DNA of 64,000 bases. It comes from Clostridia bacterium (GTDB taxonomy: Bacteria; Bacillota; Clostridia; Oscillospirales; CAG-382). Position 1 is the stretch's first letter, and every line of letters starts with the position of its first letter. Positions 5,283 through 60,854 of this stretch are shown here, piece by piece. Both the position numbers and the translations under genes were made by a program. The stretch is from positions 14,517 through 78,516 of the forward strand of contig JAFYPA010000083.1 in assembly GCA_017560085.1 (NCBI GenBank). Reading direction: 5' to 3'. The notes under the pieces were generated by a model, which saw only the letters and a program-made list of their open reading frames with translations, did not search any database and was not told the DNA's origin.

Positions 5283-7259
5283 TTATTCTGCGGTATATCT
5301 GAATATTGCGGAGCTTCTCTTTTCGGCAAGTCTTACGGTAAATCCGTTTTCCGAAAGAGCTCCTCCGTCAAGTACGGCTTTCTCGCCCGTGTCGATATTC
5401 GTAAATGTGTAGTTCTTGTCTTTATCCACCGAATAAAGCTCGAAGCACGCCTCGGTAAAGGGGGATGCGTCACGGCGGAACGCAAGAAGAATACCGTCGT
5501 TTTCCTCGGGTCTGTCAAATTGTGTCGCAGACCATGTTGTGTGGTCGTCCGTCGGCTTTGTAAGCGGATAAATATCCTCCGAAAAGTAGGGACGGAGCGA
5601 AAGATATTCCTCAAGACATCCCTTCAGCCACGCAAGCTCATCCTTGTTTTCACCGAAGGGCATATGCTTTGAGAATGTAAAGCAGGTGGAAAGTGCCGTG
5701 CCGTAAGCGCTTCTGAAGTGGTAGGTGTCGTGATAAGTGCTTCCTGCGTTTGTGCCCGAATAAGGCATCCAGGAGCCGAAATTCTGCATATGCGTCTGTG
5801 CAATTTCACTCTCGTAGTTGCCGTAGCAATATGCGTCGCTTCGCCAGAGTGGTATGCTTCTTCTGAGAGTTTCAATATCAATTCGTCTTCCGCCCGAGGC
5901 ACAGTTATCTATAATAAGTCCCGGGAATTCCTCAAGAAGCGTATCCCAGAATCTGTAAAGCCCCATTATGTGCTTGATTTCCGTGATGCCCCGTCTGTCC
6001 TCGGTGTCGTATTTTCTGAAATGCTCCAGAGGTCTGAAGTTGAAATCCTGCCTGTAGCAGTCAATACCCATCGTTCTTATTGCGTTTGCGGTTTCGTTGT
6101 AGATGTAATCCCACGCATCGTCGTTGCCGAGATTCAGAAGAAGGTTGGCTTCTTCATCGTTAAGGGCGAGGAAATATTCGGGATGCTCCTCTGTTACGGG
6201 CATACCCCTTACAACTCTTTCAGGCTCAAACCATAAAAGGAATTTTCTTCCGCTCTCGTGTATTGCCTTTGAAAAATCAAGAAGTCCGTCGGGATGTGTA
6301 AACTCGCTTGGGTGCCAGTCGCCCGTGAATTTCGACCAATGGCAGGAGCGGTCGTATTCGTCTGCCGTGGGAGTTGTTGTGCGACCGTACCAGCCTGCAT
6401 CCATCCAGATATATTCAAAGGGTAGCTTGTTCTCGTCAATTATCTTTACTCGCTTGGTGCAGAGCTCACTTTCAAGTCCACCCCACATATTTGATGCCAG
6501 CGGACCGAATTTCGGTTGTCCTTCACCGCCTATTGCAGAGTAATTTTCCTTGAGAAGCCTTCTCCATTTGTTGTGTGCGTGTACCGAGCCGCAATCGTAG
6601 GGCATAAGTACAATTGAGGATGTGCGGATTTTTTCGCCGGGAAGAAGTCTGAAATGGGTGTCCTCGATTTTTGTCTGAATAAGCACCGAATCGGGATTGC
6701 GCTTCATTCTGCAATTCCATTGTCCCGTCCAGCCTATTGCGAAAATCACACCGAAGCTCTGCTTTTCCACCTCGAAAAAGGGAGCATTTATGTCACTTGA
6801 GCGTGCGCCTGTGCTTGCATAGTTTCTTTCCTGACCTACTCTTATGTGATTGATTCTGCGCTCGCCTATGTATTCATCCACCTCCGTGTGGAACTCGTAA
6901 AGCTGCGCATTTGAGCCGTTGGGGGCGTGGATGATTGTGTGCTGTCTTATGTCGGGATATTCTCTTGAGTATCTGTATTCCTCCTCGTGGGGGAGAGGTA
7001 TTTCCACATCACAGTCCTTGAGTGCGCAGACAATTTCCGTCGGTGCGTCGCCGATGCATTCAAGATAGTTTACCCATTCGTATGAGCCGAATTTTTCGTT
7101 TTTTGTTGCGATGTTGGTTATGCGAAGACCGTTTTCGAAGGTGTATACTCTTGTGAGAGTGCTTCCGCTTTCCCTTTCTTCAAGAGTGTAGTCTTGATTC
7201 CAGGCGTATTTACCATTGTACCAAAAGCTGAAAAGCTTGTTGCTTTTAAGGAATTCCAT
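5283..7259 (-). CDS. GH36-family alpha-galactosidase-like glycoside hydrolase
   Basis: DNCASGGRRID resembles the GH36 C-x-SGGGR-x-D acid/base region, and CYRQDFN resembles the K-x-D nucleophile region. Start moved to Met23 (7259), which has an AAGGAG RBS. Confidence 0.75.
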   Translation of the reverse strand: MEFLKSNKLFSFWYNGKYAWNQDYTLEERESGSTLTRVYTFENGLRITNIATKNEKFGSYEWVNYLECIGDAPTEIVCALKDCDVEIPLPHEEEYRYSREYPDIRQHTIIHAPNGSNAQLYEFHTEVDEYIGERRINHIRVGQERNYASTGARSSDINAPFFEVEKQSFGVIFAIGWTGQWNCRMKRNPDSVLIQTKIEDTHFRLLPGEKIRTSSIVLMPYDCGSVHAHNKWRRLLKENYSAIGGEGQPKFGPLASNMWGGLESELCTKRVKIIDENKLPFEYIWMDAGWYGRTTTPTADEYDRSCHWSKFTGDWHPSEFTHPDGLLDFSKAIHESGRKFLLWFEPERVVRGMPVTEEHPEYFLALNDEEANLLLNLGNDDAWDYIYNETANAIRTMGIDCYRQDFNFRPLEHFRKYDTEDRRGITEIKHIMGLYRFWDTLLEEFPGLIIDNCASGGRRIDIETLRRSIPLWRSDAYCYGNYESEIAQTHMQNFGSWMPYSGTNAGSTYHDTYHFRSAYGTALSTCFTFSKHMPFGENKDELAWLKGCLEEYLSLRPYFSEDIYPLTKPTDDHTTWSATQFDRPEENDGILLAFRRDASPFTEACFELYSVDKDKNYTFTNIDTGEKAVLDGGALSENGFTVRLAEKRSSAIFRYTAE

Positions 7260-7276
7260 AACAGCACGCTCCTTTT

Positions 7277-8155
7277 TTATATAAACATACAAGTCCCCGC
7301 AAGACAAACCGCCATAGCAATCCACTGATTCCTTGACGGTCTTTCACGGAACACAAGCATCCCTGCAATTGCGGAGAAAATGATGCTTCCCGCCGTTACA
7401 AGCGGATAAAGCACTCCCGCGGGAATTGACTTTGCGCCTATAAGCTGTAAATAGTATGAAGCACTGTCCGCAGCCGCCGTAAGAGTAAATAGAATTACCG
7501 TGCTTCTCGTAACACAGCTTCCGAATTTTTCCGAGGCTTTTTTTGTAAGCATTACCGCAACGGGAAAGCAGAGAAGAATCTTCGCAATTGCCATAATGAA
7601 AATAAAGCTTTCCGAGTTTACGGGATTGTACACCGTGTTAATCTGATGTACCTTTGAGGTAACCGACATAAATCCGTTGAGAATAAACACAGCAACGCAC
7701 ATAAGAATCTGACTCCTTGTGGGCTTTATCGCGCCCGTGTTGGAAATAATGACCGCCGCAACGATAAGCACAATACCAAGAAGTCGAAGAAGCGAGAACG
7801 CCTCATCAAGAAAGGCAAGCCCGAAAAGATAAGGCACAAGCATTCCGCCCGTCATAAGAAACATCGTGTAAAGCGGCATATTCCCCGCACGAAGAAGCTT
7901 GAAGCCGATTACCATATAGGAAAGACATATGCCTGTCGCAAGCACCGCCATTATTGCGGAAAAGACGGAAAATTGCAGCTCATACACACCGCAAAGAGTC
8001 AGTACGGAAAAGATTACAAGCGTGGCAAGTCCCGCAAAGGCATTGAAGGTAAGAGTCGCACGGGCACTTGTTCCCGCTATGCTCTGATATTTTTTCTGAA
8101 ACACAAAGCAGAGTGCAAGAAGTGCATCCGCACCGAGAATGAGTAGGTAATGCAT
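7277..8155 (-). CDS. DMT-superfamily (EamA/GlcU-like) transporter with about 10 TM segments
   Basis: 292-aa polytopic hydrophobic protein with a two-halves architecture; embedded in the sugar cluster. Substrate unknown. Confidence 0.6.
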   Translation of the reverse strand: MHYLLILGADALLALCFVFQKKYQSIAGTSARATLTFNAFAGLATLVIFSVLTLCGVYELQFSVFSAIMAVLATGICLSYMVIGFKLLRAGNMPLYTMFLMTGGMLVPYLFGLAFLDEAFSLLRLLGIVLIVAAVIISNTGAIKPTRSQILMCVAVFILNGFMSVTSKVHQINTVYNPVNSESFIFIMAIAKILLCFPVAVMLTKKASEKFGSCVTRSTVILFTLTAAADSASYYLQLIGAKSIPAGVLYPLVTAGSIIFSAIAGMLVFRERPSRNQWIAMAVCLAGTCMFI

Positions 8156-15280: not shown

Positions 15281-15330
15281 AATGTGCAATGTGCAATAAA
15301 ATGTTGAAAAATGTTATAAAATGCAATAAT
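15281..15330. repeat. degenerate heptamer tract (AATGTGC AATGTGC AATAAAATGTTGAAAAATGTTATAAAATGCAATAAT)
   Basis: Read directly. Starts 17 nt after the stop of the Tet(M)-like gene and has the same AATGNNN phase as the other arrays. Confidence 0.5.
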
Positions 15331-20769: not shown

Positions 20770-20795
20770 AGAGTGATTTCACCTCCGGAGAAAAT

Positions 20796-21037
20796 ATAGT
20801 GAAGAGTGAATGGTGAATAGTGAATAGTTTAGGTTAATTTGCTTCGCAAATTTTCATTTGATTTAAAATTGAAGAGTGAAGGTTTTGAAGTGAATGCGTT
20901 GAATTTCGGATAAAACAATTTAAATCCAAATCGAAGAAAGCGAAGCTTTCTACATCAAAGCGAAATTCCGCAGGAATTTCTTAAGGAAAATCTTCGATTT
21001 TCCGGTCTCTTCACTATTCACTCTTCACTATTCACTG
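20796..21037. repeat. intergenic cassette copy A: heptamer-array inverted termini plus four triloop hairpins
   Basis: Left arm 20796-20828 is (GTGAAKA)x4; right arm 21007-21037 is its inverted counterpart. Hairpins: 20836-20852 (AATTTGC-TTC-GCAAATT), 20935-20951 (AGAAAGC-GAA-GCTTTCT), 20962-20980 (GAAATTCC-GCA-GGAATTTC), 20985-21003 (GGAAAATC-TTC-GATTTTCC). Confidence 0.8.
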
Positions 21038-21040
21038 ATA

Positions 21041-23632: not shown

Positions 23633-23650
23633 GGGAAGGTCCTTTCTGAG

Positions 23651-23849
23651 AATGCATAATGCATAATGCATAATGCATAATCAATGTTAATTTGCGTTGC
23701 AAATTTTCATTTTTGAATTTTATTTATTTTAGTTTGAATTTTAGAAATATTTTTGATTGCACACAATACCAATTCAAATTAAATTGAAGGAAGCGAAGCT
23801 TCCATCCACGATTATGCATTATGCATTATGCATTGTGAATTGTGCATTC
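23651..23849. repeat. intergenic cassette copy B: (AATGCAT)4 left arm and inverted right arm, sharing a core with copy A
   Basis: Left arm 23651-23681; right arm 23811-23849 (ATTATGC x3 then ATTGTGAATTGTGCATTC). Hairpins 23689-23705 (AATTTGC-GTT-GCAAATT) and 23789-23803 (GGAAGC-GAA-GCTTCC) correspond to hairpins 1 and 2 of copy A. Confidence 0.8.
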
Positions 23850-23861
23850 GCACTGACTCCG

Positions 23862-30196: not shown

Positions 30197-30257
30197 AGGT
30201 ATAAGGTAAGTTATTTTTGCCTTGAAAGCTGAAATTTATCCCTTGAAAGGAAATTTT

Positions 30258-31232
30258 ATGACACCAAAGACTAACGGTTCTTTCGGCATTCCGCCCGGAA
30301 TTCCCGTTTATCAGTATCTGGGAGCACACCCGAAAAAGCATTCGGACGGTAGCGGAAGCTACACCTTCCGGGTGTACGCCCCGAATGCCGACAGAGTTTC
30401 ACTGTGTGCGGATTTCTGCGGCTGGGAGGATGGAATCCCGATGAAGCGGGACGACCTCGGAATATGGGAGGTCACCGCGGAAAATGTCCGTGTATACGAT
30501 TGCTACAAATATAAAATAACACGGAACGGACAAAGCGTTTACAAGGCAGACCCATTCGCGCTCCACACGGAAACTCCGCCGAAAACCGCCTCCAAGATAT
30601 ACGAGCTTCCCGAGGCTTCCTTCGATGAAAGCCCCTTCGAAAAGCGGAAGTATGCGGTCGGTGCGGACTCAAAAATTTATAAGGTGAATCTTGAATTGTG
30701 GAGCAAAAAATCGGACGGCAACCCCTACAGCTACCGTGAGGCGGCGTGTATGCTTGCACCCTTCATAAAGCAGAACGGATATACCCACATCGAAATCGAC
30801 CCGATTTGCGAGTATTTTGAGCAGACCTCGTATTTCGGAAGCTTTACAAGCGGTCTCTTCGCCCCGACCTCAAGATTCGGCACTCCGCAGGATTTTGCGG
30901 ATATGGTCGGCTACCTCCGAAACGCGGGAATCGGTGTAATCCTTCGGCTTCCCTTTGAGGAAATATCAAGATGTGAGCACGGACCTTACCGCTTTGACGG
31001 AACGGCTCTCCTTGAGGAGTCGGACGGTGCACGGCTTTGCGTCGGGAATGAATTTACCTCGCAGCTTCTCATTGCCTGTGCGGACTTCTGGATAAGACGG
31101 TACGGAATAGACGGAATTCGGATTATGCGAAGAACGGCGGATTCCTCGGACGAATGCTTCCTCGAACGGCTTTCGGAGTATATGGCAGGGACACATCCCG
31201 ATATATTCGTTTCGGCTTGCGGTACGGAATAA
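30258..31232 (+). CDS. truncated, catalytically degenerate homolog of 1,4-alpha-glucan branching enzyme (CBM48 N-terminus retained)
   Basis: The N-terminal half aligns with GlgB (YQYLGAHP...FRVYAPNADRVSLCADF...YKYKI...KADPFA). Catalytic region I reads VILRLPFEEI where DWVPGHF is expected, and region II reads GIRIMRR where GFRVDAV is expected. The ORF stops before regions III/IV. Start taken at ATG 30258. Confidence 0.7.
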   Translation: MTPKTNGSFGIPPGIPVYQYLGAHPKKHSDGSGSYTFRVYAPNADRVSLCADFCGWEDGIPMKRDDLGIWEVTAENVRVYDCYKYKITRNGQSVYKADPFALHTETPPKTASKIYELPEASFDESPFEKRKYAVGADSKIYKVNLELWSKKSDGNPYSYREAACMLAPFIKQNGYTHIEIDPICEYFEQTSYFGSFTSGLFAPTSRFGTPQDFADMVGYLRNAGIGVILRLPFEEISRCEHGPYRFDGTALLEESDGARLCVGNEFTSQLLIACADFWIRRYGIDGIRIMRRTADSSDECFLERLSEYMAGTHPDIFVSACGTE

Positions 31233-32571: not shown

Positions 32572-33705
32572 ATGACAGTCGTAGGACTTATATTTTCAAA
32601 CGTATATGACAGAAACATCTCCGAAATGACACGCAAGAGAACAATGGCAAGCGTACCCTTCGGATGCAGATACAGACTTATTGACTTTGCTCTTTCCAAT
32701 ATGGTAAACTCGGGAATAGACAAGGTTGGTATCGTAACACACTATAACTATCAGTCCCTTCTCGACCACATCGGAAACGGTAAGGACTGGGACCTTGCAA
32801 GACGCTCGGGCGGTATCAAGATTCTTCCTCCCTTCATTACGGCGTATGACAGCAATGTTGCAAACAAGCTCTATTCCACAAGACTTGAGGCAATGATTGG
32901 TATAAACAACTTTATAAACCGCTGCACGGAGGACTATGTTGTTCTTTCCGACTGCGATATTATCTGCAACATCAACCTTTCAAAGGTTATAAAGCAGCAC
33001 GAGGAAAGCGGTGCGGATCTTACCGTAGTAACAAAGAAGATGTTCCTCACGGACGACGATGCGGGCAAGCACACCATTATCGAATCGGATGATGAGGGCT
33101 ATGCATCCAATGTATATGTAAGCACATCCAACACAATCGGAATCAATCCCATCTCCACAAACATCTACGTTATCAAGAGAACAACCCTTCAGGGACTTCT
33201 TCTTGAGGCGCTTGCACACGGCTACAAGTCCTTCACGCTTGATGTTCTTACGGTTCTTGCAAAGAAGAGACTGGTTAAGTGCTACGAATTTGACGGCTAC
33301 TATGCATACGTTCATTCCCTTGCGGGCTATTTCTCCACGAGTATGCAGCTTCTTGACCCCAATGTCCGTGCAGGTCTTTTCGGCATAAAGCACAGACCCG
33401 TTATGACAAAGGTGCGTAACTCCGCTCCCACAAAGTACACGGACGGCGCTGTGGTTAACAACTCCCTTATCGCCGACGGCTGTGTAATTGAGGGTGAGGT
33501 AATCGACTCAATCCTCTTCAGAGGCGTAAAGGTTGGCAAGGGTACTGTTATCAAGAACTGTATTCTTCTTCAGGACACATACATCGGTGAAAACTGCAAT
33601 CTCAACTGTGTAATTACGGATAAGAATGTAGTTATCAAGGACGGAAGAAATCTTTCGGGACACGAGTCGATGCCGTTCTTTATTGAGAAAGGGGCAAGAG
33701 TTTAA
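32572..33705 (+). CDS. glgD: glucose-1-phosphate adenylyltransferase, GlgD regulatory subunit
   Basis: Paralog of glgC lacking the GGxGxRL loop (FSNVYDRNISEMTRKRTMASVPFGCRYRLIDFALSNMVNSG). Position immediately after glgC. Confidence 0.9.
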   Translation: MTVVGLIFSNVYDRNISEMTRKRTMASVPFGCRYRLIDFALSNMVNSGIDKVGIVTHYNYQSLLDHIGNGKDWDLARRSGGIKILPPFITAYDSNVANKLYSTRLEAMIGINNFINRCTEDYVVLSDCDIICNINLSKVIKQHEESGADLTVVTKKMFLTDDDAGKHTIIESDDEGYASNVYVSTSNTIGINPISTNIYVIKRTTLQGLLLEALAHGYKSFTLDVLTVLAKKRLVKCYEFDGYYAYVHSLAGYFSTSMQLLDPNVRAGLFGIKHRPVMTKVRNSAPTKYTDGAVVNNSLIADGCVIEGEVIDSILFRGVKVGKGTVIKNCILLQDTYIGENCNLNCVITDKNVVIKDGRNLSGHESMPFFIEKGARV

Positions 33706-33741
33706 AAAAGAATGCATAATGCATAATGCATAATGCATAAT
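33654..33741 (+). repeat. direct repeat DR1 (glgD 3' end, stop codon, A-run and (AATGCAT)4AAT array)
   Basis: 55 nt (33654-33708) are identical to 34038-34092. The array 33711-33741 is identical to the left arm of cassette B. Confidence 0.9.
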
Positions 33742-33819
33742 TAAGACCGCTTGCGGTCGGAGGATTGCTTCTCGATCTTCGTTTGATTGAATTTTAATCA
33801 GAGGAAAGGACGTGATTGG

Positions 33820-34089
33820 ATGAAAAATCTTAAGCTGTTTTTCTCGGCGCTTACGGTTGCGTTTGGGATTCTGGGCTTGACTAAGGCTCTTTCGACAGAT
33901 GTTTCGATGCCGATAATGTTTGTGTGTCTGGCAACGACTATGTTTATTACGTCCAAAGAATACAAGGATAACAATCAAAAAAGGACGGCGGTTTATTTTC
34001 TGCTGTTGGGGGTGTTCCTTGTGGCGGTAACCGTATATTCGGGACACGAGTCGATGCCGTTCTTTATTGAGAAAGGGGCAAGAGTTTAA
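33820..34089 (+). CDS. small 3-TM membrane protein (DUF3953-like) whose last 16 codons are a copy of the glgD 3' end
   Basis: 89 aa with a GAGGAAAGGA RBS. The C-terminus SGHESMPFFIEKGARV is identical to the GlgD C-terminus because of DR2. Confidence 0.5.
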   Translation: MKNLKLFFSALTVAFGILGLTKALSTDVSMPIMFVCLATTMFITSKEYKDNNQKRTAVYFLLLGVFLVAVTVYSGHESMPFFIEKGARV

Positions 34090-34110
34090 AAAGAATGCAT
34101 AATGCATAAT
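34038..34110 (+). repeat. direct repeat DR2 (second copy of the glgD 3' end plus (AATGCAT)2AAT)
   Basis: Identical to DR1 over 55 nt, 384 bp downstream. One A fewer in the A-run and two fewer heptamers. The following CTTCGTTTAATTAAA resembles 33776-33792. Confidence 0.9.
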
Positions 34111-34163
34111 CTTCGTTTAATTAAAACTCCTTGTTTTTGGAGATTAAAAAAGGAGGATATACA

Positions 34164-34727
34164 ATGAATGTTTTTGTAGGCTTGATGGCTTTGCTGATTG
34201 GCTTTGCGAGCGGTAATATGATTGCAGGACAGAATGGAACCGTTGAAGATGTTTACGAATATGAAGAGGTATCCGAATTTGAAATGAGGGTCGTTCCAAG
34301 TGAGGATGAGGTGGATGCAAATCCCCGAAACAGCTTTGGACAGTTTTTCGGCTTTGAGCTTCCCGAGGGGGCTGTGATTGAAAATTACGATTACTCCATA
34401 TCGGGAAACGAACCGAATTATTGTGCCGTTATATCCTGTGATGACAAGGCACTTGCGGAATTGACCGCACAACTGGATGGCTTATATTCTGCTATAAGTG
34501 CGGAGGATGCCGAAGAAGAGGAATTGTGCCGTGAATATTTTGCAGAGCGGGTAGAGTGGTGGAAGCTTAAGGAGCTTTCGCAGGATGTTATGATATATGA
34601 AAGCTTCGAGCGTCATTATGTCAGCGACTGTAAGTGCCTTGCATCCCGTTATGTATATATTACAACCGCTACGGACGGAACAAAAACTGTATATGCGGTG
34701 CGTGCCGCACATATTGATGAGGATTGA
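34164..34727 (+). CDS. hypothetical N-terminally anchored or secreted acidic protein
   Basis: AGGAGG RBS 8 nt upstream of ATG 34164. N-terminal hydrophobic segment MNVFVGLMALLIGFASG. No family recognised. Confidence 0.55.
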   Translation: MNVFVGLMALLIGFASGNMIAGQNGTVEDVYEYEEVSEFEMRVVPSEDEVDANPRNSFGQFFGFELPEGAVIENYDYSISGNEPNYCAVISCDDKALAELTAQLDGLYSAISAEDAEEEELCREYFAERVEWWKLKELSQDVMIYESFERHYVSDCKCLASRYVYITTATDGTKTVYAVRAAHIDED

Positions 34728-34771
34728 ATATTCTGCGTTGCAGATATAATCTGTATGAAAGGAACAAAATA

Positions 34772-36211
34772 ATGAAAAAAATACTTTTCGTAGGAGCGGA
34801 AGCTCTTCCCTTTGCCGCAACGGGCGGTCTTGGTGATGTGCTCGGGTCTCTCCCCAAGGCTCTTTCCGATATGGCGGGAGATGAGGCTGATATCAGAGTG
34901 GTAATGCCGCTTTATGATAAAATTTCCGATAAATATAAAAATGAAATGAAGTTTGTCTGCTCGTTCACCGTGCCGCTTTCATGGAGAAATCTCTACTGCG
35001 GCGTGAAATCCCTTGAGGTGGGCGGTGTGACCTACTACTTTATTGACAACGAATTCTACTTCAAGCGCGGTCCTCTTTACGGTCACTACGATGACGGCGA
35101 AAGATATGCGTACTTCTGCAAGGCTGTGCTTATTATGATGTCGCAGATTGATTTCTACCCCGACATTCTCCACGCACACGACTGGCAGGCGGCTCTTTCC
35201 GTCATTTACGCAAAGAGAAAATTCGCATCCCTTCCCGGATATTGCGGTATGAAAACCGTGTTTACCATTCATAATATCGAATATCAGGGCAAATATGATT
35301 TCGCTATTCTTGGCGACGTTTTTGACCTTGACGAGACCGACAGAAACACAATGGAATACGGCGACTGCATAAATCTTATGAAGGGCGCAATCCAGTGTGC
35401 GGATGCGGTTACAACAGTAAGTCCCAGATATGCGGACGAAATAAAGACTCAGGATTATTCCCACGGTCTGCATTATATCCTTCGTGAAAACGAATATAAG
35501 CTCTTCGGTATTCTCAACGGTATCGACACCGAGCTTTACAACGCAAAGACAGACCCCACAATAGCATACAACTTCACGGACAGAAGCCTTGCAAAGAAGA
35601 CCGCAAACAAGAATGCACTTCAGAAGGAAATCGGTCTTCCCGAAAGAGCGGATGCTCCCATGTATGCAATCATCACCCGTCTTGCATCACACAAGGGTAT
35701 TGACCTTGTTAAGTGCATTATAGGCGAATTTGTGGGTGGCAACGATGTTCAGCTTGTTGTTCTCGGTACGGGTGACAAGGAATACGAAGGCTTCTTCCTT
35801 GAGCTTGAGGACGCATTCCCCGACAAGGTGCGTGCGCTTATCACCTATGACAGAGACCTTGCAAAGAGAATCTATGCCTCCGCAGATATGTTTATTATGC
35901 CCTCCAAGAGCGAGCCCTGCGGACTTGCACAGATGATTGCATCCCGTTACGGCACTATTCCGATAGTCCGTGAAACAGGCGGTCTTTACGACTCCATAAA
36001 GCCCTACTGGGAGGACGGCAAGAAGGCATACGGCAACGGCTTCACATTTGCCAACTACAATGCCCACGAGCTTCTTGACAGACTCTATGCCGCACTTGAG
36101 CTTTACAGAGATAATACCAAGTGGTCGAAATTGGTCAGAGTGGCAATGAAAACAGATTTTTCGTGGGATATTTCGGCACAAAAGTATCTTGAAATGTACG
36201 GCAATTTATGA
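34772..36211 (+). CDS. glgA: glycogen synthase (ADP-glucose type, GT5)
   Basis: MKKILFVGAEALPFAATGGLGDV N-terminus with the KTGGL-type motif. Start moved to Met17 of the ORF track. Confidence 0.95.
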   Translation: MKKILFVGAEALPFAATGGLGDVLGSLPKALSDMAGDEADIRVVMPLYDKISDKYKNEMKFVCSFTVPLSWRNLYCGVKSLEVGGVTYYFIDNEFYFKRGPLYGHYDDGERYAYFCKAVLIMMSQIDFYPDILHAHDWQAALSVIYAKRKFASLPGYCGMKTVFTIHNIEYQGKYDFAILGDVFDLDETDRNTMEYGDCINLMKGAIQCADAVTTVSPRYADEIKTQDYSHGLHYILRENEYKLFGILNGIDTELYNAKTDPTIAYNFTDRSLAKKTANKNALQKEIGLPERADAPMYAIITRLASHKGIDLVKCIIGEFVGGNDVQLVVLGTGDKEYEGFFLELEDAFPDKVRALITYDRDLAKRIYASADMFIMPSKSEPCGLAQMIASRYGTIPIVRETGGLYDSIKPYWEDGKKAYGNGFTFANYNAHELLDRLYAALELYRDNTKWSKLVRVAMKTDFSWDISAQKYLEMYGNL

Positions 36212-38796: not shown

Positions 38797-40755
38797 ATGC
38801 AAAACAGCGTAAAAAACAAATTATACGGAATGGGAATCCTCGGTAAGGCTCAGAAATGTGCTCTTGCTTCGGAAAATCCCGTAATAACAATAGAAAAAAG
38901 GGCAGGGGACTGCGATTTCTCAACTCTTGGCGCAATCCCCGAGCCGAAGGAATCGGATAAGCTCTTTTTATCCGTAAGGCTTCCGAGAGAAGCGGGACTG
39001 TGCGGTGTGAAATTCACAATTGCAGGTGACGGCGGTGACAACGCTTACTTTAAGCTGTATTACCGTGGCGACCTTGTGACGGATGAATATTCCGCCGAAA
39101 TTCCCGTATCGGATTTGCCGATGGGGCTTTCAAACGGCCTTTACTACTACCACTTCGAGCTTGATTTCGGCACGTTCACGCTTTACACAAGAAGCATAAA
39201 CAACGCAGACTTCGAGCTTTGCGAGGAATACCCCTACCAAAGATTCCGCCTGCTTGTCCACGAAAGAGACCTTGATACTCCCGAGTGGTTCAAGGGCAAT
39301 ATTATGTACCACATTTTTGTGGACAGATTCTTCAAGGGTACAAGAAGCGTTCCCGTATCAAAAACCGCCGTTATAAATCCCGATTGGGAAAACGGTATAC
39401 CACAGTACGGCGAATACCCGGGGGCATTTGTGGAAAACAATATGTTCTTCGGCGGTACACTCTACGGCATTGCGGAAAAGCTTGACTATCTTGAAGGTCT
39501 CGGTGTGGGATGTATTTATCTCAGCCCGATTTTCAAGGCGTACTCCAACCATAAGTACGACACCGGAGACTATATGACGGTTGACGAAATGTTCGGCGGC
39601 GAGGATGCTCTTCGTGAGCTTATCTCAAAAGCGGAGGAAAGAGGCATAAAAATAGTCCTCGACGGTGTTTTCAACCACACGGGGGACGACAGCCTTTATT
39701 TCAACAGATACGGAAGATATGACAGCCGTGGCGCATACGGAAATGCCGACTCCCCCTTTAGAAGCTGGTACAGCTTTGAGGAGGACGGAAGCTACAAGTC
39801 CTGGTGGGGTATCGAGGTTTTGCCAAAGCTCAACCAGAGAAACCCCGAGTGCAAGAATTACTTCCTCGGAAAAGACGGCGTAATTGAAAAATACTTCGGT
39901 ATGGGCATAGGCGGTATACGCCTTGACGTTGCGGACGAGCTTCCCGATGAATTTCTCGACGGACTCTACGGCGTTGTCAGAGGCGTAAAAAAGGACGGTC
40001 TTATCATAGGCGAGGTATGGGAAAACGCCGCAGATAAGGTTGCCTACGGCGAAAGACGAAGATATTTCAGAGGCGGTCAGCTTGACAGCGTTATGAATTA
40101 CCCTATGAAAAATGCGGTAATCGAGCTTGTCAAAAACGGCGACTCGGAATTTTTCTATAACGTAATAACAGAGCTTTACTCAAGCTACCCTAAGGCGTGC
40201 AGTGATGTTCTTATGAACATCCTCGGTACTCATGACACGGACAGAATTCTGACGGTGCTTGCAGGCGAAAACCCAGATGGCTACACAAACGCAGAGCTTT
40301 CCGTAAAGAGAATGACAGCGGATGAGCGGACAAAGGGCGTGAAAATGCTCTGCACCGCAGCGACACTTCAGTATACGCTGTTCGGCTCTCCTTCGGTATT
40401 CTACGCCGATGAGGCAGGCTCCGAGGGCTACAGAGACCCGTTCTGCCGTATGCCTTACCCGTGGGGAAGAGAAAACGCAGAGCTTCTCGGATTTTACAAA
40501 AAGCTCGGACAAATCAGAAGAAGCGAAAGGGTATTTGCAAAGGGCTCATTTGAGTTTTTAAAGGCTTCGGACGGCTTTGTTTCCTTCAGAAGATTTGACG
40601 GTGACGACGAAATTGTCGTTATGGCAAACTGCGGAAGAAGCGATGTATGCGAAAAGCTTTCCGATAAATACACGAATCTTTATACCGACAGTACCGAGGA
40701 AGCGGAAATCACCGTTTCTCCCATGTCGGCAAAAATACTTAAGAAGCAAAGGTAA
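38797..40755 (+). CDS. GH13 alpha-glycosidase (neopullulanase/cyclomaltodextrinase-like)
   Basis: GH13 regions DGVFNHTG, GGIRLDVADELP, GEVWE and ILGTHDTDR. The exact start (38797 or 38830) is uncertain. Confidence 0.85.
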   Translation: MQNSVKNKLYGMGILGKAQKCALASENPVITIEKRAGDCDFSTLGAIPEPKESDKLFLSVRLPREAGLCGVKFTIAGDGGDNAYFKLYYRGDLVTDEYSAEIPVSDLPMGLSNGLYYYHFELDFGTFTLYTRSINNADFELCEEYPYQRFRLLVHERDLDTPEWFKGNIMYHIFVDRFFKGTRSVPVSKTAVINPDWENGIPQYGEYPGAFVENNMFFGGTLYGIAEKLDYLEGLGVGCIYLSPIFKAYSNHKYDTGDYMTVDEMFGGEDALRELISKAEERGIKIVLDGVFNHTGDDSLYFNRYGRYDSRGAYGNADSPFRSWYSFEEDGSYKSWWGIEVLPKLNQRNPECKNYFLGKDGVIEKYFGMGIGGIRLDVADELPDEFLDGLYGVVRGVKKDGLIIGEVWENAADKVAYGERRRYFRGGQLDSVMNYPMKNAVIELVKNGDSEFFYNVITELYSSYPKACSDVLMNILGTHDTDRILTVLAGENPDGYTNAELSVKRMTADERTKGVKMLCTAATLQYTLFGSPSVFYADEAGSEGYRDPFCRMPYPWGRENAELLGFYKKLGQIRRSERVFAKGSFEFLKASDGFVSFRRFDGDDEIVVMANCGRSDVCEKLSDKYTNLYTDSTEEAEITVSPMSAKILKKQR

Positions 40756-40877: not shown

Positions 40878-40912
40878 CCCTGTCGATTGCGTGTCGGCAG
40901 GGATGTTGTTTT
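40878..40912 (+). terminator. bidirectional terminator hairpin
   Basis: CCCTGTCGA-ttgcgtg-TCGGCAGGG (9 bp, one G-U pair), then ATGTTGTTTT. Lies between convergent operons. Confidence 0.55.
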
Positions 40913-42233
40913 ATACTGATGCTTTTTCGGCTTCGCCTGAAGCCGATTCTTTTTTCGCCTCGGATTCCGATTCGGCCTCGGCTTCCGATTCCAATGCAAG
41001 CCTTGCGTTGGACAGCATAAGACGGATTCTGTTTTCCTGATTTACCGCCGTTGCGCCCGCATCGTAGTCTATTGCGACTATGTTTATGTCGGGATATTTT
41101 TCCTTGAGAGGCTTCATCATACCCTTACCGCAGATGTGGTTTGGAAGACATCCGAAGGGCTGTGTGCAGACGATATTCTTGGCATTGCTGTGATAAAGCT
41201 CCACCATTTCCGAGGTGAGAAGCCATCCCTCGCCCATTTTCGCACCGAAGCTTATTATGCCCTTTGCAAGGGTAAGAGTCACATCAAAGGGAGTGGGGGC
41301 ATCGAAGGTACCCTCCTCCTTTATTGCCTCGATCATAGCCTTCTGCTTTTTGAGAACGACATTGTATATGATTTCATAAACCGTATACACAAGGGACTTG
41401 AAGCCGTACAGCTTTTTGTCAAGCACAACATTGTAGATACAGTAAAGAATGAAATCCACAAATCCCGGAATTACGGGCTCTGCACCGTTCTTCACAAGGA
41501 AATCCGCAAGATTGTTGTTGCCGAGAGGGGAGTATTTTACAAAAATTTCTCCTACTATACCAACCTTGAGCCTTTGTCCGCGGTTAAGCTCTATTTTTGC
41601 AAAGTCGTCGATAATTTCACGGTATGTTCTTGCCGATTCCTTTTTGGTGGGCATTCGCAGATGATTGTCTCCCGAGGTCAGCTTTGCCACCCATTTTTCG
41701 CATACAAGTGCCGAAGCACCCTTGCTTGCCTCGTAAACCTCACACTGATTGCGAAGATTCATAAGAAGGTCGGCATAAAGAAGTGCGTGAAAAATTTCAA
41801 GATATATCGGAATGGTAATCTTCCAGCCCGAATGCTTTTCAATCTCACCGAAGCTGAATGCAATAACGGGAACATATCCGTAGCCCGCCTTAGAGAGAGC
41901 CTTACGAAGAAGCGAAACATAGTTTGATGCCCTGCAGCCTCCGCCCGTCTGGAAAAGAATCAGCGCAACCTTGTGCGGATCGTATTTTCCGCTTTCTATC
42001 GCATCCAGAAACTGACCGATAACGAGAATTGCGGGATAGCAGGTGTCGTTATGTACATAGCGGAGTCCCTTTTCCGCAAGATGCTTGCCCTCCGATTCGA
42101 GAAGCTCCATGTCGTAGCCGTAATTTTTAAGGACACGCATTATAAGCCTGAAATGCATCGGAAGCATATTGGGAACAAGGATTTTGTACTCCTTCTTCAT
42201 TTCGGCTGTGAATTCAACAAATCCTTCCGTCAA
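40911..42233 (-). CDS. 2-hydroxyacyl-CoA-dehydratase-like / activase-associated protein of unknown function
   Basis: Corresponds to the C-terminal module of the ~1400-aa putative CoA-substrate-specific enzyme activase proteins. TTG start with an AAGGAGG RBS. Acidic SE/AE-rich tail. Confidence 0.65.
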   Translation of the reverse strand: MTEGFVEFTAEMKKEYKILVPNMLPMHFRLIMRVLKNYGYDMELLESEGKHLAEKGLRYVHNDTCYPAILVIGQFLDAIESGKYDPHKVALILFQTGGGCRASNYVSLLRKALSKAGYGYVPVIAFSFGEIEKHSGWKITIPIYLEIFHALLYADLLMNLRNQCEVYEASKGASALVCEKWVAKLTSGDNHLRMPTKKESARTYREIIDDFAKIELNRGQRLKVGIVGEIFVKYSPLGNNNLADFLVKNGAEPVIPGFVDFILYCIYNVVLDKKLYGFKSLVYTVYEIIYNVVLKKQKAMIEAIKEEGTFDAPTPFDVTLTLAKGIISFGAKMGEGWLLTSEMVELYHSNAKNIVCTQPFGCLPNHICGKGMMKPLKEKYPDINIVAIDYDAGATAVNQENRIRLMLSNARLALESEAEAESESEAKKESASGEAEKASV

Positions 42234-46197: not shown

Positions 46198-46230
46198 AAT
46201 TGTGCATTGTGCATTGTGAATTGTGCATTC
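46198..46230. repeat. solo heptamer array (ATTGTGC x2, ATTGTGA, ATTGTGC) abutting the proA stop codon
   Basis: Read directly. The 21-mer TGCATTGTGAATTGTGCATTC is identical to the end of the right arm of cassette B (23829-23849). Confidence 0.8.
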
Positions 46231-60746: not shown

Positions 60747-60854
60747 AAAATGCACAATGCAAAATGCAAAATGCAAAATTGATGTGAAAATTTCTTCGAA
60801 ATTTTTATTTTATTGAAATCGCCTGCGGGCGAGGGGAATCGGGGGGTTCCCGAT
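60747..60854. repeat. partial intergenic cassette (copy F) inside the groES-groEL spacer
   Basis: Array AAATGCACAATGCAAAATGCAAAATGCAAAAT (60747-60779). Hairpins 60787-60805 (AAAATTTC-TTC-GAAATTTT), 60819-60832 (TCGCC-tgcg-GGCGA) and 60838-60854 (ATCGGG-gggtt-CCCGAT). Confidence 0.65.

Follow-up and report, generated by a model that had tools for sequence, protein, structure and literature searches.

The 55-nt direct repeat between glgD and glgA in the stretch of DNA that we analyzed (the window, 64 kb) is probably the scar of a join between two alleles of one locus. In the reading that we favor, an A-type allele, in which glgD is followed by a small membrane-protein gene, was broken after codon 73 of that gene and illegitimately joined to a fragment of a B-type allele, in which glgD is followed by a different gene (ORF2). 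This fragment begins 51 nt before the glgD stop, and the second copy of the repeat appears to be the start of the second allele, not an attR. Comparisons with related sequences indicate that the glgD-glgA spacer is a polymorphic slot in an uncultured Oscillospiraceae-like lineage. The features of the region are as follows.

32572 to 33705, + strand: glgD, 377 aa, intact (annotated as GlgD by NCBI; Pfam NTP_transferase and hexapeptide domains)
33654 to 33708, + strand: copy 1 of the 55-nt repeat, the native glgD tail with its stop and A-run
33711 to 33741, + strand: AATGCAT array of 4.4 units, 5 nt past the glgD stop
33742 to 33819, + strand: A-type leader of the small gene, including its RBS, 93-97% identical to the leader in L087 and L088
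33745 to 33758, + strand: hairpin GACCGCTTGCGGTC in the A-type leader
33760 to 33780, + strand: predicted terminator-like hairpin in the A-type leader
33777 to 33797, + strand: U-rich tail CTTCGTTTGATTGAATTTTAA after the terminator-like hairpin
33820 to 34089, + strand: chimeric small membrane-protein ORF, 89 aa, which terminates inside copy 2
34037 to 34039, + strand: the sole novel junction, where the small gene (…GTAACCGTATAT) is joined to glgD from codon 362 onward (TCGGGACACGAG…)
34038 to 34092, + strand: copy 2 of the 55-nt repeat, apparently the start of the B-type allele fragment (34038-34771)
34094 to 34110, + strand: AATGCAT array of 2.4 units
34111 to 34163, + strand: B-type leader, with CTTCGTTTAATTAAA, a hairpin CTCC…GGAG and the ORF2 RBS
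34164 to 34727, + strand: ORF2 (187 aa), which has a single hydrophobic segment at the N-terminus and matches no family
34728 to 34771, + strand: 44-nt spacer with the glgA RBS (TGAAAGGA), of the type found in B-type and empty-slot relatives
34772 to 36211, + strand: glgA, whose 5' end is 98.8-99.2% identical to that of conspecific A-type strains

The 55-mer (TTCGGGACACGAGTCGATGCCGTTCTTTATTGAGAAAGGGGCAAGAGTTTAAAAA) is exact at both sites, which are 384 nt apart, as the preliminary description had reported; the chance expectation for such a repeat is 0.00. It consists of the final 16 codons of glgD, the stop codon and an A-run, and its first base is the third position of the codon before those 16. 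If indels are allowed then the repeat extends to about 88 nt. There is no third copy within the window, even at up to 3 mismatches. After each 55-mer comes the AATGCAT array that had been described, and then CTTCGTTTGATTGAA (from 33777, copy 1) or CTTCGTTTAATTAAA (from 34111, copy 2). The C-terminus of GlgD (LSGHE[ST]MPFFI[EG]KG..V) is kept in all relatives, so copy 1 is the ancestral copy of the tail. A segment of the first copy (33742-33774) had been taken for a 33-nt insert, but L087 and L088, which are conspecific strains, have it as a regular part of the small-gene leader, and copy 2 is the copy without it. The broader claim, that the duplication is real and of recombinational origin, is supported.

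The structure can be reduced to one novel join between two sequences that are each contiguous elsewhere. In the A2 alignment, the window is identical to the unbroken small gene that L087 and L088 carry up to …CCGTATAT and is thereafter identical to its own glgD tail, and the two sides overlap by a single T (34038). The junction (34037|34038) falls within coding sequence, 56 nt upstream of the heptamer array. The chimeric ORF therefore takes codons 1-73 (33820-34038) from an 82-aa family and its last 16 codons and stop from glgD, and it ends in SGHESMPFFIEKGARV, the same as GlgD. Nine native codons (NVISMIFGV) are missing, that is, 73 of 82 are kept, and the third hydrophobic stretch is shorter; in conspecific and sibling strains the native C-terminus is …YNVISMIFGV. 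The preliminary description of an 89-aa ORF with three TM segments and a GlgD-like C-terminus within copy 2 was correct, in that we see three predicted hydrophobic stretches (residues 4-24, 28-45, and 54-76, approximately). Compared with L088, the window has gained 734 nt and has lost the nine codons, the stop, and a 64-nt spacer. Two other similarities were set aside: a 76% match over 25 nt between the small gene (33888-33912) and the glgD tail is off the breakpoint and is regarded as chance, and TTTCGG, which the native end of the small gene has in common with the glgD tail, is 18 nt away from the true breakpoint and played no part in the join.

The relatives of this bacterium carry several alternative states of the slot: it may be empty, or it may hold the 82-aa gene (A-type), the 187-aa ORF2 (B-type), or other cargo. 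The preliminary description had suggested looking for an empty site at the glgD-glgA junction, and there are such sites: glgD abuts glgA in L001, L003, L005-L010, L101, and L102, which are more distant relatives. Two conspecific strains, L087 and L088 (98.6-99.2% nucleotide identity), have the leader, a small gene with its native end, a 64-nt spacer, and glgA. The sibling-species strains L092 and L093 have glgD, heptamers, the leader, the small gene, and glgA. None of these four has the repeat. The slot of L087 holds two genes, gene X and the small gene; gene X was considered as a homologue of ORF2 and was rejected (BLASTP, E = 2.7). L103 stops just past glgD, and the part of its spacer that is visible matches the A-type L093. 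A search for conspecific glgD 3' ends returned only relatives of at most 87% identity.

These occupied sites bear directly on the proposal that the repeats bracket a captured gene. L087, L088, L092, and L093 hold the small gene at this location, with its own C-terminus and without the repeat. The preliminary description had named relatives of just this kind, with an unrelated C-terminus and no direct repeats, as evidence against its own proposal, and we do not think that the proposal can be maintained.

The B-type side of the window runs from the glgD tail through heptamers and a short leader to ORF2 and glgA. The sibling strain L096 has glgD, heptamers, a leader, a homologue of ORF2, a 44-nt spacer, and glgA. 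Because copy 2 is colinear with this allele (glgD tail, heptamers, leader, ORF2, glgA), we take copy 2 to be where a second allele begins. The part of the B-type leader near the RBS aligns with the ORF2 leader of L096. Furthermore, L096 and the A-type L092 have near-identical flanks up to …GAATTTTAAT and then again from the ATG of glgA. The pure B-type allele was seen only in L096, which belongs to a sibling species, and it is absent among the window-species strains that we compared. Nevertheless, the second allele appears to have come from the same species, as the glgD tail has 6 differences in 51 nt from the species of L096 and 0 in 55 between the two copies in the window.

ORF2 is nearly an orphan: its sole relative is P0122 in L096, with 74% amino acid identity. 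It is under purifying selection (dN/dS of 0.21), and so is the small gene (dN/dS of 0.05-0.43). Neither protein matched a family above threshold in Pfam, NCBIfam, PHROGs, or PADLOC. When we scanned JGI metagenomes with a degenerate MPFFIEKGARV* pattern and with the ORF2 protein, nothing was found, so the clade seems to be missing from that collection.

The small gene belongs to a larger family. There are 371 matches at E ≤ 10, with 76-97% identity among the 120 matches listed, and without exception these listed matches cover only the first ~74 residues of the window's protein. Family members lie in a number of chromosomal settings that are unrelated to one another, and also on phage contigs: IMG/VR has 4 loci that match the small protein, while tblastn found no match in INPHARED phages or in PLSDB plasmids. 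Given these varied contexts, and because the gene is missing from the glgD-glgA junction of distant relatives, the idea that it is an accessory and mobile gene is supported.

How the second allele arrived can be suggested from these comparisons: we infer the entry of the DNA, the enzymes, and whether there were one or two steps from sequence. In the most economical route, DNA with the other allele would have been taken up from a conspecific strain. Homologous recombination, either in glgA or in glgC/glgD, would have integrated one end, while the other end would have joined illegitimately; overall this amounts to homology-facilitated illegitimate recombination (HFIR). A homologous anchor is present beside the event: glgD upstream is intact, and the 5' end of glgA could serve as an anchor because of its high identity to conspecific A-type strains. 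Alternatively, a 384-bp tandem duplication might have come first, and its second unit might then have been exchanged for the other allele by homologous recombination, with the same product. Either way, the join happens to be in frame, so that the small gene borrows the last 16 codons of glgD, its stop, and its downstream spacer.

Other explanations seem less probable than this join between alleles. A local copy-and-paste event is unlikely in our view. By that account, a copy of the glgD tail and its spacer overwrote the small gene at its 3' end, in an ancestor with the order glgD, small gene, ORF2, glgA, whether by ectopic gene conversion or by template switching. The existence of another two-gene slot (in L087) makes such an ancestor easier to imagine, and 100% identity over 55 nt fits a recent intragenomic copy. 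But conspecifics diverge by ~1%, so 0 differences in 55 nt would also be expected from a conspecific donor; two illegitimate junctions would be required, not one; no arrangement of the small gene and ORF2 without the tail was found; and the colinearity of the right side with the glgD-ORF2 allele of L096 would be left unexplained. An artefact of assembly is less likely still. Since the source is a MAG and A-type and B-type alleles co-occur in the clade, coexisting strains might have been stitched together within one metagenome. The ENA scaffold L089 carries the same sequence (0 mismatches in 9134 nt), and the chimeric ORF is found in contigs of 261,740, 109,331, and 92,504 nt as well as in a Logan contig, although these may stem from a common sample. 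A de Bruijn assembler cannot invent the k-mers of a junction with a 1-nt overlap, and the junction is in contigs of three different sizes. The Logan contig (L091), from another assembler, starts precisely at base 34038, where copy 2 begins, which would be expected from reads with two left contexts for the 55-mer.

The preliminary description had offered two explanations of its own. One was integration at the 3' end of glgD, which would regenerate the gene and leave attL/attR-like repeats. Integrative elements that target 3' ends classically leave the end of the gene behind as a direct repeat, islands that target tRNA or tmRNA genes both insert into and regenerate gene 3' ends, the repeat here is the 3' end of glgD, and the small-gene family is mobile. 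Even so, we consider site-specific integration to be extremely improbable. In the 329-nt interval, whose sole gene is the 89-aa ORF, and within about 10 kb of it, we found no integrase or transposase. Terminal inverted repeats are absent, and conspecifics hold the gene at this very site but have no repeats. Since the cargo gene is cut short by the right repeat, the "insert" is not a complete unit and, unlike such an island, is not self-contained. That no recombinase is present had been stated before, and we can confirm this for 24.3-46.2 kb, where the neighbors are MiaB-like, Hsp33, methyltransferase, DeoR, PFK, glg genes, amylase, and BcrAD-type proteins; a 440-aa ORF (40911-42233) has no Pfam match. 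Nor does the interval resemble a transposon, IS, or MITE, as no inverted repeat pairs the ends of the insert and the direct repeat is 55 nt long, versus 2-14 bp for a target duplication. As for integron cassettes, the 3' end of a cassette carries an attC, an imperfect palindrome whose cores read RYYYAAC…GTTRRRY, and integrons have an IntI/attI platform. No attC-like palindrome could be seen by inspection downstream of the small gene in the window, L087, L088, L092, or L093, and there is no integrase. A junction motif (AATTCCAA-N4-TCGAAC) beside the 82-aa gene of L081 and L085 is otherwise found only in L082; it is not a general cassette boundary, so the integron-like idea was dropped.

The other explanation was slippage or template switching between the heptamer arrays, with the repeat family driving the capture of cassettes. 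This is very improbable, although arrays follow both copies, a difference of 4.4 versus 2.4 units is typical of slippage, and arrays are about 12 times commoner in the window than in L001-L080 (where there are 0.08 per 10 kb). The sole novel junction is in coding sequence rather than in an array, and the window's other arrays are not accompanied by a duplicated gene tail: the suggestion that other gene tails would be found duplicated beside heptamers has no instance within the 64 kb. Also, the arrays are already there in L092, L093, and L096, and short heptamer-like duplications lie past the glgD stop even in the empty-slot L001. Because heptamers are found in A-type, B-type, and even empty-slot strains, they must predate the event. 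Copy 2 is colinear with an allele that was observed independently in L096, so the evidence does not link the heptamer family to the event, and its proposed tie to the capture of gene cassettes is unsupported. The idea of a tandem duplication fares better, as it is close to one version of our preferred explanation; it is the part played by the heptamers that fails.

The heptamer arrays are a real feature of this lineage nonetheless. Intergenic tandem units of 7 nt, in at least 2 copies, are over-represented, and under a strict period-7 criterion the 64 kb have 6 arrays, versus 0-1 in shuffled sequences. All 7 sense arrays begin 1-20 nt past a stop codon, and in two spacers, one between a ylbF/ymcA-like gene and mutS and the other between mutS and mutL, a heptamer array is paired with an inverted array. 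The unit varies (AATGCAT, ATTGTGC, ATAGTGA, or AAAATGC), and a single fixed unit upstream of starts is not what we see. The window's other heptamer spacers contain no small cargo ORFs. Heptamer arrays also appear to follow stop codons throughout the genome. Known intergenic heptanucleotide repeats include long simple sequence repeats (LSSRs) and the TAACTGA repeats of Beggiatoaceae and cyanobacteria (PMC4679880). Those and the arrays in the window share their 2-5 units of 7 nt, their intergenic location in many unrelated operons, and a variable copy number. However, TAACTGA lies just before starts, not after stops, and the units in this lineage vary by locus and even at the orthologous site (AATGCAT, AATGCAA, AATTCGG, GATTCGG). 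The whole window had 0 matches to Rfam at gathering thresholds, so the leader and heptamer modules do not belong to a curated RNA family. The leader motif CTTCGNTTNATTGAATTTTAA was considered as a dispersed repeat and rejected, as it occurs once in the window with 3 mismatches allowed; unlike this motif, a looser architecture of a hairpin and a U-rich tail does recur.

Several known processes resemble the event that we propose. HFIR has a homologous anchor and an illegitimate end, with insertion coupled to deletion, and it is known from S. pneumoniae, A. baylyi, P. stutzeri, and conjugation in E. coli (PMC3240628). The window has a homology-anchored end, an illegitimate end, and an insertion with a small deletion, but the mechanism here is deduced from the product. 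Also, characterized junctions of HFIR usually have 3-10 nt of microhomology, while the overlap here is 1 nt, and the donor here would be another allele of this locus, which makes the product mimic a partial tandem duplication. Tandem duplication at microhomology between sister chromosomes gives one novel junction and an unstable head-to-tail repeat at the boundary. The window shares the single junction, the boundary repeat, and the expected instability via the repeats, but its units differ in content (the small gene versus ORF2), so a pure duplication would not be enough without a later allele swap. Finally, T6SS effector-immunity and Rhs/CDI loci form arrays by sequential, or "C-terminal", displacement, and the logic of HFIR has also been suggested for arrays in which 3' pieces of the conserved gene upstream are retained (PMC5361080). 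As in those arrays, there is a conserved upstream anchor gene, a resident module has been pushed downstream while keeping a 3' fragment of the anchor gene, and alternative modules share one slot in the population. On the other hand, the cargo in the window has no toxin or immunity signature, there is a single step, the operon is a housekeeping one for glycogen, and the glgD fragment is fused in frame to another gene.

We view this as ordinary genome plasticity with a chimeric ORF as the outcome. The event was probably a recent one-off, so the biological stakes are modest, and the 55-nt repeats should permit deletion back to a B-type allele. Still, small genes have a hot spot in the glgD-glgA spacer, and the window offers a natural snapshot of how accessory genes can pile up in a core operon by one illegitimate join. 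There is a warning here as well: the 3' end of a gene, when directly repeated, resembles the scar of an att site, yet in this case the repeat seems to be the edge of a second allele. A more ambitious reading concerns the post-stop module, which has a heptamer array, a stable hairpin, and a U-rich tail and in some cases ends in an inverted heptamer array right ahead of the following RBS. It would be a lineage-specific intergenic element, and promoterless small genes that resemble phage morons would preferentially land or be exchanged there within core operons. We doubt this. If it were true, then the slot, with its empty, small-gene, ORF2, gene X plus small-gene, and hybrid states, would be the first visible example of an "operon slot" cassette system, and such a system would have no known recombinase.

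Phage morons are small accessory genes that lie between late regulators and packaging genes. The 82-aa family resembles them, in that it sits between a phrog_36 regulator and HNH/terminase genes and is a lone small gene in many chromosomal settings, but the 82-aa gene here is promoterless and lies inside a core metabolic operon. The 82-aa membrane protein is highly conserved, mobile, and moron-like, and on IMG/VR contigs it is found between the phrog_36 late regulator and the HNH and terminase genes.

The best explanation for the structure between glgD and glgA is that one illegitimate join fused two alleles of this slot. The preliminary description reported an exact 55-nt duplication, and the copies at 33654-33708 and 34038-34092 are indeed identical; no third copy occurs in the 64-kb window with up to three mismatches allowed, and none is expected by chance. 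The 55-mer comprises the final 16 codons of the ORF at 32572-33705 (377 aa), its TAA stop codon, and an A-run. The ORF encodes GlgD, with an NTP_transferase and a hexapeptide domain, and an identical protein from a "Clostridia bacterium" MAG is named GlgD by NCBI. As was also described, AATGCAT heptamers follow both copies (Tandem Repeats Finder counts 4.4 units for copy 1 and 2.4 for copy 2), the related motif CTTCGTTT(G/A)ATT(G/A)AA lies beyond both, and an 89-aa ORF with three hydrophobic stretches (33820-34089) ends with the same 16 residues as GlgD. The operon order is PFK, a CBM48 protein, glgC, glgD, this small ORF, ORF2, glgA, glgP, and an amylase-family gene. A repeat search across the whole 64-kb window found no other duplicated gene tails.

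Second gene of the slot
34164-34727, ORF2, 187 aa, without a family match

The nearest relatives of this GlgD (80 loci from GTDB genomes, 58-87% identity) are from uncultured Oscillospiraceae or Eubacteriales MAGs from ruminant and human guts. In the ten closest relatives inspected (L001-L010), GlgD ends in LSGHE[ST]MPFFI[EG]KG..V and glgA lies 0-250 nt away; two other loci (L101 and L102) have the same end and the same adjacency. Because these features are constant, the tail is native to glgD, and the 55-mer that closes the small ORF is a derived copy. In L002, the glgD-glgA spacer (7132-7400) carries a hairpin-containing unit of ~60 nt twice in tandem (AAGAACGCTTTGCGTTCTT), which is a further sign that this spacer is prone to repeat expansion.

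Among 5.8 billion proteins, 371 match the window's small protein, and the best 120 of these are 76-97% identical to it. Nearly all members of this family are 82 aa, every one aligns to residues 1-74 of the window's protein only, and their native C-termini read …VTVYNV[IA]S[ML]I[FW]G[VI]. The window's own species is also represented by two short contigs, L087 and L088: the small gene is 98.6% identical and the first 249 nt of glgA are 98.8-99.2% identical. Both have the same leader, a native-ended small gene, a 64-nt spacer, and glgA (the A-type allele), and the glgD-tail repeat is absent. So the proposed integration bracketed by the 55-mers is not supported, as conspecific strains have the small gene without the repeats. 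In sibling species (L092 and L093), the order is glgD, heptamers (AATTCGG or AATGCAA), a hairpin/leader, the native-ended small gene, a spacer, and glgA. The small gene is under purifying selection (dN/dS of 0.05-0.43, with synonymous sites saturated against more distant members). In comparisons of the window with the sibling species, synonymous divergence is only 0.26-0.35 for the small gene against 0.62-1.07 for glgD next to it, which hints that the cargo was exchanged more recently than the operon. In A-type alleles, a short array of inverted heptamers (caattttgcattttgcat) closes the spacer behind the small gene, directly ahead of the RBS of glgA.

A-type spacers with inverted arrays
L087, 574-637
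L088, 344-407
L092, 558-643
L093, 754-815

The small gene is thus framed by heptamers and inverted heptamers, as in the empty frames of two spacers that flank mutS. The right-hand part of the frame, the inverted array, is absent from the window's hybrid.

ORF2 is a near-orphan whose sole relative, the protein P0122, is 74% identical. The locus of P0122 (L096, a sibling-species strain) has glgD, heptamers, a hairpin/leader, the ORF2 homologue, a 44-nt spacer, and glgA (the B-type allele). The sequences of L096 and of A-type L092 are near-identical as far as …GAATTTTAAT, a stretch that takes in the glgD tail, heptamers, and leader; beyond it the two are completely different until identity returns at the ATG of glgA. 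Because near-identical flanks surround wholly different cargo, the slot has two alternative fillings with sharp boundaries within one population. One conspecific strain, L087, carries a third cargo: gene X (3-179, ending …RYIDIATGESDTRIINKNK) lies 5' of the small gene and is followed by two AATTCG[AT] units. Gene X is unrelated to ORF2.

When aligned, the window matches the native small gene of L087 and L088 to …GTAACCGTATAT, and from the next base on it matches its own glgD tail. Either parent could supply the T at 34038, which is the single ambiguous base at the join. From 34038 to the start of glgA, the window is co-linear with a B-type allele: tail, heptamers, a short leader (its RBS-proximal portion can be aligned with L096), ORF2, and the 44-nt spacer, whose TGAAAGGA RBS is also present in empty-slot relatives. 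This second allele probably came from the window's own species, because the tails differ at 0/55 positions between the window's copies and at 6/51 positions from the L096 species. Relative to L088, the window lacks nine codons, the stop codon, and the 64-nt spacer, and has gained 734 nt. The segment 33888-33912 (encoding LSTDVSMP) resembles 33651-33675 (LSGHESMP) at 19/25 nt, but it is away from the breakpoint and this likeness is probably due to chance.

A single illegitimate join with homologous exchange on the opposite side would be enough to produce this structure. Alternatively, a 384-bp tandem duplication could have arisen first, its second unit then being exchanged for the B-type by homologous recombination; both routes yield the same product and cannot be separated here. 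The join preserves the reading frame, for which the odds were one in three, and the third hydrophobic segment of the chimera shrinks from ~29 to ~23 residues, followed by a polar tail. Direct repeats are subject to repeat-mediated deletion, so the 55-nt repeats should permit loss of the 384-bp unit, which would restore the B-type allele. Because of this, the hybrid is probably either young or selected. On this explanation, the event is a fresh case of a known class: insertion with one illegitimate join plus homologous exchange is homology-facilitated illegitimate recombination (PMC3240628). The same logic has been proposed for effector-immunity/Rhs arrays, whose displaced modules retain a piece of the 3' end of the conserved gene that precedes them (PMC5361080).

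As far as our tools reach, we reject att-type integration, transposon insertion, and an integron cassette, because the cargo is incomplete and conspecifics have this site filled without any repeats. There is also no recombinase in the 55-mer interval or anywhere in 24.3-46.2 kb, and there are no inverted repeats at the ends of the interval. Nor is the suggested heptamer-mediated capture supported, as the arrays are away from the junction. Heptamers at the slot predate the event: they are found in both A-type and B-type strains, and short, heptamer-like sequences occur in some empty-slot relatives. Could the junction be an artefact of an assembly that mixed A-type and B-type strains? The assemblies that carry the chimera may share one sample. 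But de Bruijn assemblers cannot create novel junction k-mers from two separate strains, so these strains alone would not account for it. Furthermore, the chimeric protein is found on contigs of 261,740, 109,331, and 92,504 nt; another locus (L089) has zero mismatches to the window across 9.1 kb; and a Logan contig, from a different assembler, begins exactly at 34038, where the left contexts of the two 55-mers diverge. An artefact is therefore unlikely.

Heptamer arrays are a feature of this genome: by a strict period-7 criterion they occur at ~0.9 per 10 kb in the window versus 0.08 in L001-L080, a ~12-fold excess; shuffled windows have 0-1 each.

Heptamer arrays in the window, counted with Tandem Repeats Finder and by eye
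15281-15329
20796-20828/21007-21036
23651-23681/23811-23848
33711-33741
34094-34110
46199-46229
60747-60779

Spacers with a sense array after the stop codon and an inverted array ahead of the RBS
20770-21040, minus strand, mutS-mutL
23633-23861, minus strand, YlbF/YmcA-like gene-mutS

All seven sense-oriented arrays begin 1-20 nt past a stop codon, either of a housekeeping gene (EF-G family, mutS, YlbF/YmcA-like, glgD, aldehyde-dehydrogenase family, and groES) or of the chimeric ORF. The units of the arrays are related but not identical (AATGCAT, AATGTGC, ATAGTGA, ATTGTGC, and AAAATGC), and the unit of the orthologous arrays after glgD differs by species (GATTCGG, AATTCGG, AATGCAA, or AATGCAT). 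Units of 7 nt dominate long simple repeats (Mrázek's finding, summarised in PMC4679880) and intergenic heptamer repeats are known elsewhere, but the placement after stop codons and the variable units set the window's arrays apart from those. The paired arrays enclose ~130-180 nt of AT-rich DNA with small hairpins such as GGAAGC-TTCG-CTTCC, and the two spacers have 75% internal identity over 60 nt. Their predicted RNA has a 25-30-bp stem (MFE of -71 kcal/mol, z = -8.2), and Rfam has no match for them; they are MITE-like or processing-stem-like. The hairpin and U-rich "CTTCGTTTGATTGAATTTT" after the glgD array have a weak intrinsic-terminator-like score.

The 82-aa gene is mobile: an identical protein (P0002) is encoded in four or five neighbourhoods at least that are unrelated to one another, and relatives at 85-89% identity are on four IMG/VR viral contigs. 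There it occupies the position of a moron, with a late transcriptional regulator (phrog_36) on one side and HNH/terminase genes on the other. Across L081-L086 and L097-L100, its surroundings comprise these viral ones and unrelated ones with AAA_33/glyoxalase, LysR, ECF transporter, HTH/DUF6487, and DUF998 genes, and the family is highly conserved despite this (76-97% amino acid identity among the matches listed). The gene moves together with ~25 nt of upstream and ~20 nt of downstream sequence, and an imperfect 26-nt direct repeat (AATTCCAA-N4-TCGAACAGTTA) flanks it in L081 and L085.

Elsewhere in the window, the usual position of glgB (30222-31232) has an ORF of only 336 aa with a CBM48 match alone, and a 652-aa alpha-amylase-family gene (38797-40755) lies behind glgP. 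This may reflect a split, truncated, or relocated branching-enzyme function. Finally, two pairs of minus-strand ORFs (3518-4318/4355-5329 and 8192-10213/10225-12300) are tandem paralogues, because they are adjacent and 74-89% identical in DNA.
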